NCBI GenBank assembly: GCA_030740155.1
Contig: JASLXV010000100.1
Location: 1-36,062, forward strand
Source of the DNA: Dehalococcoidia bacterium
GTDB taxonomy: Bacteria > Chloroflexota > Dehalococcoidia > Lucifugimonadales > UBA3495
DNA: 36,062 nucleotides
Direction of reading: 5' to 3'
Shown here piece by piece: positions 1,353-5,448 of this stretch; position 1 is the stretch's first letter; each line of letters opens with the position of its first letter. The notes under the pieces were generated by a model. It did no database searches and was not told where the DNA came from. It saw only the letters and a program-made list of their open reading frames with translations. The translations under genes were made by a program, and so were the position numbers.

Positions 1353-1400
1353 ACCTTGAAACGCCCCGGCCAGCCGCCAGGGAGCGTTCCGACGTGAGTA

Positions 1401-1429
1401 ATGGTAATCTGGCTCCGGCGGGCTGTCAA
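1401..1429 (-). promoter_or_regulatory. Sigma70-type promoter for tRNA-Met
   Basis: Minus strand TTGACA (1429-1424), 17-nt spacer, TACCAT (1406-1401). Confidence 0.7.
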
Positions 1430-1537
1430 ACGACGGCTGGACGGGAATCACGGGCGTTGGCCCCGGCCTTGCCTGCGAAATCCACCTGCGGGCCGGGACT
1501 TGGCTCCAGGCGAGCGCCGTATTATCATGGAGCGGAT

Positions 1538-1924
1538 ATGGATTCGATGGGCGAGACCAAAGGACAGCAAACCCCGAGCGGTGATAGCTCTATCGTCGAG
1601 GCGGCTTCCTGCCTTCACCGGGTGCTTGCCGGTCTCGCATCCCGCCTTCGCCCCTTCCCGGCGTTCTTGAACATGACGTCGCTCCAGGCAGTCGAGCTTG
1701 ACCTGATGCCTGAGGGAATGCCGGACCGGGGATGCGTGGTTGTGCTGCCCGGCGGGGAGATTCGTGAGCTGGACCTGAAGGTCTTGCCGGGCATCGAAGG
1801 AGTAACCGAGTCGGACCAACTCGAGGAGTTCCGCGAGATGGACCTCTCTCCAGAGGTATACATAATGTATGCCGCCAGCGCCATCCGGTTACTGTGCCAG
1901 GAGCTGCGCCAGAGGGGACAGTAG
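1538..1924 (+). CDS. Hypothetical protein (~128 aa)
   Basis: Within ORF 1394..1924. The ATG at 1538 follows GGAG (ATG at 1547 is an alternative), while the upstream extension overlaps the tRNA promoter. Protein-like composition; no family recognised. Confidence 0.65.
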   Translation: MDSMGETKGQQTPSGDSSIVEAASCLHRVLAGLASRLRPFPAFLNMTSLQAVELDLMPEGMPDRGCVVVLPGGEIRELDLKVLPGIEGVTESDQLEEFREMDLSPEVYIMYAASAIRLLCQELRQRGQ

Positions 1925-1946: not shown

Positions 1947-2684
1947 CTAGCGCCGGAAGAAGGAACGGGGCCAGCGAGTCACCGATTTCCACCGGGGCGA
2001 TAGCCAGGAATAGCTTTCAAGCATCTCCCCCAGCCTCAGTGCTGCCCCCTGGCGCAGCGGCTTGCCGTGACCGACGCAGGCCGTCTCGAAGGGCAATTGG
2101 GCCAGCCTCTCCACGGACGCCCGGTAGTCCCGGAGGTTGGTGCCCGGAAAGGCCACGGGGCGGTGGAAACGGTGGCCGTCGGCGAGCAGCGTGTCCCCGG
2201 TGAACAGTACCTTTGGTCCGGCCAGGTAGAGGCACACGCTGCCCGGTGTGTGGCCCGGAGTGTGCAACACCTGGAGTCCCCCCAACACCGGCAATACCTG
2301 GCCGTCCTCGATCAGCTCGTGGGCGGGAATCCGGTGCAGGAAGGGCTGGTTCCAATCGAAGGCCGGAGGCTGGGCCGGGTAGTGCAGCCAACGGGAGTTG
2401 GTTTCTTCCCGGTAGCGAGTGTCTGATGGGTGGACCGCGATGACGGCGCCGGTGAGCCGGGACAACCCTTTCAAGGGGCCGGTATGGTCCGGGTGGCCGT
2501 GGGTGACGATCAGCCGCTGCAGCTCCAAAGGGCTTCGGCCGAGGTGTTGAATATAGGCGATGATCTTCTTGCCGTCTCCCGGCAGGCCGGAATCGATGAG
2601 CGTCAATCGGTCCGGTTCCACCAGCAGGTAGGCGTTGCTCCATCTCAGGCCGGGGACTTGGTGGACGCCGGGGCAGATCTCCAC
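1947..2684 (-). CDS. MBL-fold metallo-hydrolase
   Basis: LIDSG, THGHPDH (HxHxDH), [13 protein letters not shown] and VGHG motifs. GTG start after GAGGAG. Confidence 0.92.
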
Positions 2685-2690
2685 CGGGTT

Positions 2691-3599
2691 CTACTCCTCC
2701 AGTGCTATATCGCCGCTCCTGCCGCCCTTTTTTCGGACCAGCCGGATACCCTCGATGCGGATGCCGCGGTCTACTGCCTTGCACATGTCGTACACGGTCA
2801 GCGCGGCTATCGAAACCGCGGTTAGCGCCTCCATTTCAACGCCGGTCTTGGCCGAGGTGCGGGCACTGGCCGTGATGTTGATCCGGTTGCGGGTCTCATC
2901 CAGCTCCAGTTCCACGTCCACCCGGTCCAGGGGCAGGGAATGGCAAAGAGGGATCAATTCGGACGTCCGTTTGGCCCCCATGATACCGGCCAACTGAGCG
3001 ACGGACAGCACGTCACCCTTCTTCATCAGCCCCTCTTTTATCAGCTGCAGAGTTTCGGGTAGCACCGATAGGTATCCCCGAGCCATTGCCTCCCGGTCGG
3101 TAGTCGGTTTCTCGCCCACGTCCACCATCCGGGCCCGGCCCTGCTCGTCCAGGTGGGTAAGGGCTGTGGAGGTCCCTCCACCCGGGTTGCCGCCCGCCGC
3201 CAACTTCGTCGCGGCGACGGCCAGCTGGTCCGCTTCCTCGTTCCAGCGGTCCCCGGCATGACCTCGCACCCAATGCCAGCTTATGGTGCGCCCGGCGGCG
3301 AGGGAATCGAGTTGGCTCCAGAGGTCGTGGTTGGCGCGGCGCTTCCAGTTCTTGGTCATGGTGTTGACCAGGTAGACGCTGTCGCTGTGGAGCGCGACGA
3401 AGGCTCCGGCGGGCGTCGACTCTAGGCCCTTGATGGCGGCGGTCAGCTCCATGCGGTTGTTGGTGGTTTGGGGCTCGGGACCGGAGAGGCGCAGGGGTTC
3501 ACCCTGCTCCCGCAGGACGACGGCGCCCCAGCCGCCGGGGCCGGGATTGCCCTGGCAGGAGCCATCGGTGTATATGGTTATGGTGTCGGTTGGTGACAA
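2691..3599 (-). CDS. rnhA-moaC: Fusion protein: ribonuclease HI (aa 1-~132) + cyclic pyranopterin monophosphate synthase MoaC (aa ~147-302)
   Basis: N-half has [28 protein letters not shown] and WVRGHAG..NEEAD. C-half has [38 protein letters not shown] and YDMCKAVD. Single uninterrupted frame. Confidence 0.9.
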
Positions 3600-3661: not shown

Positions 3662-4675
3662 CTATCCCCCGATATGATACATCTCCACCTTTTTTCGGGC
3701 GTTCTGTTCCGGAGTCAGCTCGGCCCTCTCCTCGGAGTAGCGGTCGACGCGGCGGCCCCAGAGGCCGGTAACCAGCTCCCGTAACTCATCGTCGCCGGCC
3801 CCCGCCCGTAGCGGGCCTCGCAGGCTGAGGCCGGAGGAGGCGAAGAGGCAGGTGTAGAGCATCCCGTCGGGGGATAGCCGGGAGCGGGTACAATCGCCGC
3901 AGAAGGGCATCGTGACCGAGGCGATAACGCCGATCTCTCCGCAGCCGTCGCGGTAGCGGTAGCGCTTGGCCACCTCGCCCCGGTAGCCGCTCTCCACGGG
4001 CTCCAACGGCATCTCGGCATCGATCCGCCGGACGATTTCCTCGGCGGGCACCACCTCATCCAATTTCCAGCCGTTGCGGTTGCCCACGTCCATGTACTCG
4101 ATGAACCGGACCACGTGGCCGGTGCCCTTGAAATACCGGGCCAGGTCGACCACCGTGTGGTCGTTGACGCCTTTTTGCACCACCGAGTTGATCTTGATCG
4201 GGGTCAGCCCCACCGCCGCGGCCCTTTCTATGGCGAGGAGGACCCGGCGGGAGCCGAAGCCCCGGCCGTTCATCGTCTTGAAAACCTCGTCGTCCAGGCT
4301 GTCCAGGCTCACCGTCAACCGGTTCAGGCCGGCGTCTTTGAGCTGTTGCGCCTGCTGGACCAGCAGGGTACCGTTGGTGGTGATGGTCAGGTCCTCGACG
4401 CCGTCGATGCCCGCCAGCATGCCGATCAGCCGGTGGAGGTCATTGCGCAACAGGGGTTCACCGCCGGTGATGCGCACCTTGTTGACCCCCAGGCCCACGA
4501 AGATGCGGGCCAGCCGGGTAATCTCTTCGAAAGTGAGGATCTCCTCTTTGGGCAGGAACCGGTAGCTTTCCCCGAAAATCTCGGCGGGCATGCAATAGGG
4601 GCACCGGAAGTTGCACCGGTCGGTGACTGATATCCGCAGGTCCCGCACCGGCCTGCCGAACTGGTCGGTAATCAT
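3662..4675 (-). CDS. moaA: GTP 3',8-cyclase MoaA (radical SAM)
   Basis: [18 protein letters not shown] (CxxxCxxC), [20 protein letters not shown]...TCLF and a C-terminal IGG. Confidence 0.97.
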
Positions 4676-4722: not shown

Positions 4723-5448
4723 TTACCGGCCCCTAAAAATGCTTTTCAACAAGGCTTCAGCTTTCCGGGCCGCGTCGGCCCGGTGGCTGATCAGGTTCTT
4801 TTCCTCCAGGGAGAGTTGGGCCATGGTCAAACCGTGGGACGGAAGGTAGAACACCGGATCGTAGCCAAAACCCTCTTCTCCCAGCGGTTCATATTGTATC
4901 ATTCCCTCCACCGCACCGGCCACCAGCGCAAAAGCCTCGGCCCCCTCTCTCGTCGACTCCGGCGTCTCTCGCCTTGCTGAATAGGGGCCAGCGGGGTTCG
5001 CCAGAACAATAACGCACCGGAATCGGGCGGTGCGCCGTTCCCAGGGCACGTCTCGCAGGTTGTGCAGCAGCAGCTCCAACCGGTCCCGGTCGGTTCTTTT
5101 CCCAGCCGTTATTTGGCTGGGCTGAGAAGTGGGGGATGTCTCACCGTAGCGGGCGGAGCGGACGCCGGGCTTGCCACCCAGGGCGTCGACCTCCAACCCT
5201 GAATCGTCGGCCAGGGTCAGCAACCCGCCGAGGGCGGCGTAGGAGCACGCTTTGAGCCGGGCGTTTTCCTCGAAAGTCGCTCCCGTCTCCTCCACCTCTT
5301 CGGTGATCCCGAGATCGCCCAGAGAGACCAGTTCAAAGGGACAGTCCCGGAGCAGCCGGCGGAACTCCCGCACTTTCCCCGGGTTTCGAGTAGCGATCAA
5401 GAGTCTACCTTGAGACACTCCAGCTTCACACACGTTCAAATCCTGCAT
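4723..5448 (-). CDS. rdgB: Non-canonical purine NTP pyrophosphatase (RdgB/HAM1 family)
   Basis: IATRNPGK, EETGATFEENARLKA, ADDSGLEVDALGGKPGVRSARY, GFGYDPVF and EKNLISHR. Exact start uncertain. Confidence 0.93.
   Translation of the reverse strand: MQDLNVCEAGVSQGRLLIATRNPGKVREFRRLLRDCPFELVSLGDLGITEEVEETGATFEENARLKACSYAALGGLLTLADDSGLEVDALGGKPGVRSARYGETSPTSQPSQITAGKRTDRDRLELLLHNLRDVPWERRTARFRCVIVLANPAGPYSARRETPESTREGAEAFALVAGAVEGMIQYEPLGEEGFGYDPVFYLPSHGLTMAQLSLEEKNLISHRADAARKAEALLKSIFRGR

Follow-up and report, generated by a model that had tools for sequence, protein, structure and literature searches.

An in-frame RNase HI-MoaC fusion in Dehalococcoidia and the changeable state of its junction among relatives

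Results

Organization of the RNase HI-MoaC locus

The window, i.e., the whole stretch of 36,062 nucleotides analyzed here (contig JASLXV010000100.1 of a Dehalococcoidia bacterium), carries on its minus strand an open frame of 302 codons (positions 2691-3599, TTG start, TAG stop) in which RNase HI is joined to MoaC, and the plus strand of the same interval is interrupted by stops. The fusion and its neighbors are listed below.

4723..5448, minus strand: RdgB/HAM1 non-canonical purine NTP pyrophosphatase, upstream neighbor (TIGR00042, above cut-off)
3662..4675, minus strand: moaA (GTP 3',8-cyclase), directly upstream of the fusion (TIGR02666, 388 bits against a cut-off of 284)
3204..3599, minus strand: RNase HI domain, residues 1-132 of the fusion (PF00075, alignment to the E. 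coli and Chlorobium RNase HI, fold match)
3162..3203, minus strand: Gly-rich linker of 14 residues (sequence; disordered in the model)
2691..3161, minus strand: MoaC domain (cyclic pyranopterin monophosphate synthase), residues 147-302 and the stop (TIGR00581, alignment)
1947..2684, minus strand: metallo-beta-lactamase-fold hydrolase, beginning 6 bases past the fusion stop (Pfam Lactamase_B)

The hydrolase scored under every NCBIfam cut-off shown, and is a probable operon neighbor of the fusion. The gene order moaA-rnhA-moaC was found to be the common frame across the relatives; within flanks of limited length, moaA was located at 99 of the 128 fused loci, at 55 of the 64 split ones, and at 28 of the 32 that lack rnh. 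One RNA run covered the contig only at 2538-2745 and 4421-4661, and a scan of the window for promoters and terminators stayed at chance level.

Further along the window, a tyrosine recombinase/integrase was identified by Pfam at the contig start (276-1220, minus strand), and a 176-aa protein that matched neither Pfam nor NCBIfam is encoded at 1394-1924 (plus strand). Look-alikes of the latter were observed in two loci of relatives (L146:2483-3025 and L227:4039-4455), where they directly follow moaC and are encoded on the opposite strand.

Authenticity of the fusion

A Pfam search with the 302-aa protein located RNase_H at residues 6-130 (E 7e-33) and MoaC at residues 158-293 (E 2e-58) within the single minus-strand frame, in agreement with the original prediction of an in-frame fusion. 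The linker likewise proved to be as described there, with neither a stop nor an ATG between the two domains. The same prediction had raised the possibility of an assembly error. The linker region (3110-3230) was spanned free of indels by contigs of three DNA runs from three studies, one run being possibly the source of the window, and the sole difference inside the gene among these contigs was a synonymous one at position 2703. Moreover, both Pfam domains were present in all 120 of the listed top homologues of the 302-aa protein. An assembly artefact was thus ruled out, and the RNase HI-MoaC fusion is genuine.

In the structure model of the monomer (pTM 0.52), two well-folded domains were connected by a disordered linker (pLDDT below 50 at residues 138-150), and the model matched MoaC structures and RNase HI structures separately. 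In the host genome, which is 93.7% complete, the fusion was the only RNase HI match (PF00075/PF13456) as well as the only MoaC match, and no second rnhA, for which the original prediction had proposed a check, was found with these two profiles; a separate RNase HII is present. Related loci and seawater runs suggest that the host is a marine Dehalococcoidia of the SAR202 type. The linker DNA also contains a short perfect inverted repeat (3168-3183) including GGAGG, which may possibly be the relic of a ribosome-binding site and is followed by no start codon.

Properties of the RNase HI domain

Alignment with the E. coli RNase HI placed D12, E51, D73, D124, and H114 of the fusion at D10, E48, D70, D134, and H124 of that enzyme, which substantiated the four acidic catalytic positions proposed at the outset. 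Among 58 fused homologues, D12, E51, and D73 were conserved in at least 90%, and D124 was less so, being replaced by N or H in some. The monomer model matched RNase HI chains at E values of about 1e-15, and the His loop with H114 is present. The domain therefore shares the fold, the DEDD tetrad, and the His loop of the E. coli-type RNase HI (PF00075; PDB 1rnh, 3h08), but differs from it in carrying a C-terminal MoaC, in staying below the cut-off of the E. coli-type model PRK00203 (135.5 bits against 160), and in a deletion of 13 residues within the basic protrusion. The protrusion, most of which had been described as lost, is hence trimmed rather than gone: the 13 residues are indeed missing, but NWKRR is retained, and W85, K86, R87, and N90 were invariant across 40 close homologues. 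Judging from these residues and from its status as the sole PF00075/PF13456 match, the domain would be expected to cleave RNA in RNA/DNA hybrids.

Properties of the MoaC domain

The MoaC part reached 208 bits with TIGR00581 (cut-off 141.5) and 232 bits with PRK09364 (cut-off 162), and it aligned without gaps to residues 3-158 of the E. coli MoaC with approximately 51% identity. The active-site residues of the latter, given as K51, E112, D128, and K131 in the available part of PMC9026282, correspond to K194, E255, D271, and K274 here, and these were invariant in the 58 fused homologues (49-87% identity). Like typical MoaC proteins (TIGR00581; PDB 4pyd, 1ekr), the domain is full-length, keeps the catalytic positions, and has moaA upstream. 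MoaC is a hexamer according to the same partial source, and by analogy with its family the MoaC of the fusion would be a trimer of dimers.

The molybdenum cofactor (Moco) context of the host genome comprises the adjacent moaA, the sole MoaC, a MoaE, and 14 molybdopterin-oxidoreductase matches, a genomic setting in which this MoaC presumably works with MoaA in the Moco pathway. The MoaC fusions listed in NCBIfam (MoaC-MoaB, MoaC-MOSC, and MoaC-MobA) have other Moco proteins as partners, whereas the present one carries an unrelated nuclease, attached at the MoaC N-terminal loop.

Distribution of the fused and split states

The state of the slot between moaA and moaC was compared among relatives, all tallies of fused, split, trimmed, and full forms being counted by hand from the result tables. 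In the order sample of 151 genomes, 101 were fused, 33 had adjacent but split genes, 12 lacked rnh before moaC, one was unresolved, and four gave no match; 90 of the 101 fused cases were confirmed on DNA, and the remaining 11 were assigned from a single stop-free match, which in one case is truncated at the end of a contig. In the window's own family (81 genomes), 20 were fused, 36 were split, 16 had no rnh at the slot, and one was frameshifted inside RNase H, with eight unclassed (two without a match, one without a MoaC match, and five not retrieved). The fusion also occurs beyond the order, in at least 22 of the 143 class genomes sampled there (nine families), a count that leaves out loci L322-L327. 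Among 107 genomes of the phylum outside the class, with G404 set aside, no full-length match was found under a limit of E 1e-40, which could hide a two-piece fusion with a long linker. A Bacteroidia candidate (L075) turned out to be a plain MoaC, and the long frames preceding RNase H in 10 loci, considered as triple fusions with MoaA or other proteins, appeared by eye to be off-frame run-ins of the upstream gene.

As most genomes of the order sample are fused and the fusion extends into other orders, it is either old or favored, which counts against the run-on origin discussed below. It is nevertheless not the fixed lineage-specific fusion that had been proposed, since it spans several Dehalococcoidia orders, is mostly split in the family to which the window belongs, and changes state within genera. 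Six genera (g36, g54, g58, g66, g109, and g110) contained both fused and split members, and in one genus the junctions of a split member (G140) and a fused member (G032) differed by a one-base indel; in the former, moaC is provided with an ATG of its own, which overlaps the rnhA end. Other split loci exhibited start-stop overlaps or ribosome-binding sites of their own, and are thus functional as two genes rather than broken fusions. The fused linkers ranged from about 0 to 65 residues and were unconserved in sequence. Where the slot was empty or filled by an unrelated gene, MoaC stood alone, and each of the 12 order genomes that lack rnh there had a full-length-type RNase HI elsewhere.

Variant genes at the slot

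Several other occupants of the slot were also observed. In genera g5, g3, and g107, the place between moaA and moaC is taken by a small Cys/His protein (L147:3604-3978, minus; L146:3651-3917, minus; L227:2895-3422, plus), one of the three matching an Ada zinc-binding domain. Nine family genomes from genera g94, g98, and g101 carry before moaC an RNase H-like gene that is degenerate but still open (L216:1882-2409, minus; L239:2949-3524, plus; L222, L229, L234, L235, L237, L242, and L243). The first catalytic Asp was changed in seven of the nine, the His loop was lost in both of those fully read, and a second, longer RNase HI was found elsewhere in all nine genomes. A C-terminal MEAGL stretch common to two of the genera hints at a retained hybrid binder without cutting activity rather than at plain decay. 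In L222 (G226), tandem repeats of approximately 1.1 kb extend the degenerate frame between RNase H and moaC. In addition, L195 (G038) encodes RNase H, a degenerate RNase H, and MoaC in a single frame, L302 (G367) is a fusion whose RNase H catalytic acids are lost, and L313:2110-3483 (minus; G141) encodes, ahead of a fused gene, a 457-aa protein that matched RNase H twice.

Relationship between the trimmed protrusion and fusion

The RNase HI forms at the slot were sorted by the length from the D73 motif to the last strand, which was 37 residues in the trimmed form (38-43 in a few) and 51 in the full form. In the order sample, fusion was seen for 100 of 117 trimmed enzymes as against one of 17 full ones (genome counts with kin among them); the corresponding values in the family sample were 20 of 28 and none of 19, with nine degenerate copies set aside. 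Such a skew would be accounted for if the MoaC hexamer displayed up to six trimmed RNase HI domains and thereby offset their weak hybrid binding, an advantage that would be selected without being essential. Along this line, the hexamer would have been repeatedly co-opted as a multivalent scaffold, the resulting six-headed hybrid nuclease would gain in affinity or processivity on long R-loops, and standalone trimmed enzymes would be weaker or would bind MoaC in trans. The hexameric nature of MoaC is in keeping with this, as are the available portions of earlier reports, in which RNases H without the protrusion often rely on a partner domain (PMC3305377, PMC1950709) and the RNase H of the actinobacterial Rv2228c is reported to be slower in vitro without its CobC partner (PMC7466739). 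Of the 101 fused order genomes, 24 keep the fusion despite a second RNase H match (the other 77 had none), which counts against the run-on origin discussed below.

These relatives are, however, not independent, because the full copies could have arrived recently by in-place replacement, too late for a fusion to have arisen. The trimmed but unfused enzyme was the only PF00075 match in all 17 such order genomes (11 families), and those that were read kept all four acids; the genomes are incomplete, however, and being the sole match does not make an enzyme active. The full form is also able to fuse, as a distinct full-protrusion RNase HI joined to MoaC in G141 points to a separate fusion event and broke the rule, which had held in the first loci, that full-protrusion enzymes never fuse. 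The conserved basic W-K-R stretch retained in the trimmed enzyme and the wide range of linker lengths likewise speak against scaffolding. A predicted complex between the RNase H domain and a MoaC dimer (score 0.15, mark 0.32) favored neither reading. The original idea of compensation for the lost protrusion held as far as the preference of fusion for the trimmed form is concerned, but not for the trimmed enzymes standing alone or the full-form fusion in G141. We therefore regard avidity scaffolding as unlikely, and a repeated co-option of the hexamer for it as doubtful to the same degree.

Discussion

Proposed origin of the fusion

The locus is probably best understood as encoding a bifunctional housekeeping protein that arose by run-on fusion of coupled operon neighbors and whose domains work independently. 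In an ancestor of a Dehalococcoidia radiation, rnhA would have lain between moaA and moaC, with its stop at or overlapping the moaC start. One indel or lost stop would have joined the two genes and another would have split them; as a single such change is enough to toggle the junction, fusion and fission would recur, the direction of each event being our reconstruction. In the protein, the MoaC part would assemble as usual and make cPMP from the MoaA product, the RNase HI parts would cut RNA in RNA/DNA hybrids on their flexible linkers, and neither domain would depend on the other. Given that the relatives, a large group of uncultivated Chloroflexota, split and rejoin rnhA and moaC so freely, the two domains most likely merely share one chain. 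Of the readings put forward originally, a neutral fusion of neighbors fitted best, with a state that is labile within genera, an unconserved linker, and a trimmed enzyme that is unfused elsewhere; the fusion is thus probably neutral.

Two separate products might also be released from the fused gene, either through an internal start or through cutting of the exposed linker. The disorder of the linker in the model, its GGAGG, and a Met in the linkers of some long-linker homologues are compatible with this. It is nonetheless highly improbable, since no ATG, GTG, or TTG lies between the linker GGAGG and the LTH motif of MoaC, and the linkers of many homologues are too short for a start signal. Less credible still is a regulatory coupling in which RNase H is tied to the mobile N-terminal loop of MoaC and a ligand at one domain tunes the other: by alignment, the fusion point lies just before that loop, which orders together with loop 3 in the closed state (available part of PMC9026282), and the operon also contains a purine NTP sanitizer, but the linker is unconserved and variable in length, the two genes separate freely among members of one genus, an unrelated gene can occupy the slot, no conserved residues were noticed beyond those of the two families, and no evidence was found for the originally suggested coupling of R-loop processing to GTP/Moco status.

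Comparison with known systems

Among the systems that have been studied, the nearest is the actinobacterial RNase HI-CobC/acid phosphatase (Rv2228c, MSMEG_4305, SCO2299; PRK07238). Both proteins have an N-terminal type 1 RNase H without the full basic protrusion, a highly variable linker, and a cofactor-biosynthesis enzyme as the partner. For the actinobacterial protein, the hypothesis of compensation was raised in vitro but mattered little in vivo, and the fusion was ascribed to drift, as stated in the accessible part of PMC7466739. The present protein differs in that a C-terminal MoaC replaces the histidine phosphatase (CobC) (PRK07238, 41 bits against 326), in that its RNase H is of the E. 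coli type with a His loop, and in that its partner is hexameric and the fusion labile within genera. By this analogy, it most likely resembles RNase HI-CobC in its working while standing outside that family.

The same architecture was found in automatic clusters of the ESM Atlas named "MoaC family/RNase H domain-containing protein" (12 of 30 matches, best score 0.98, commonest phylum Chloroflexota), whose names are machine-made and have no study attached. A search of titles and listings, mostly open-access and excluding supplements, found no paper on an RNase HI-MoaC fusion, and the available part of PMC9719913 offered general background only. The architecture is therefore widespread in one class and undescribed in the literature searched.

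Significance

In many abundant marine Dehalococcoidia, the fusion supplies the only RNase HI together with the only MoaC, and its automatic annotation as MoaC alone hides the nuclease. The locus also constitutes a natural experiment, in which all four combinations of fused or split with trimmed or full occur at one place and a pair from the same genus stands one base apart. With these combinations and this pair, a long-standing question becomes directly testable, namely whether a partner domain takes over the role of the RNase HI basic protrusion or such fusions are fixed by drift. If the two domains are independent, the locus would represent a tidy case of recurrent run-on fusion within an operon.
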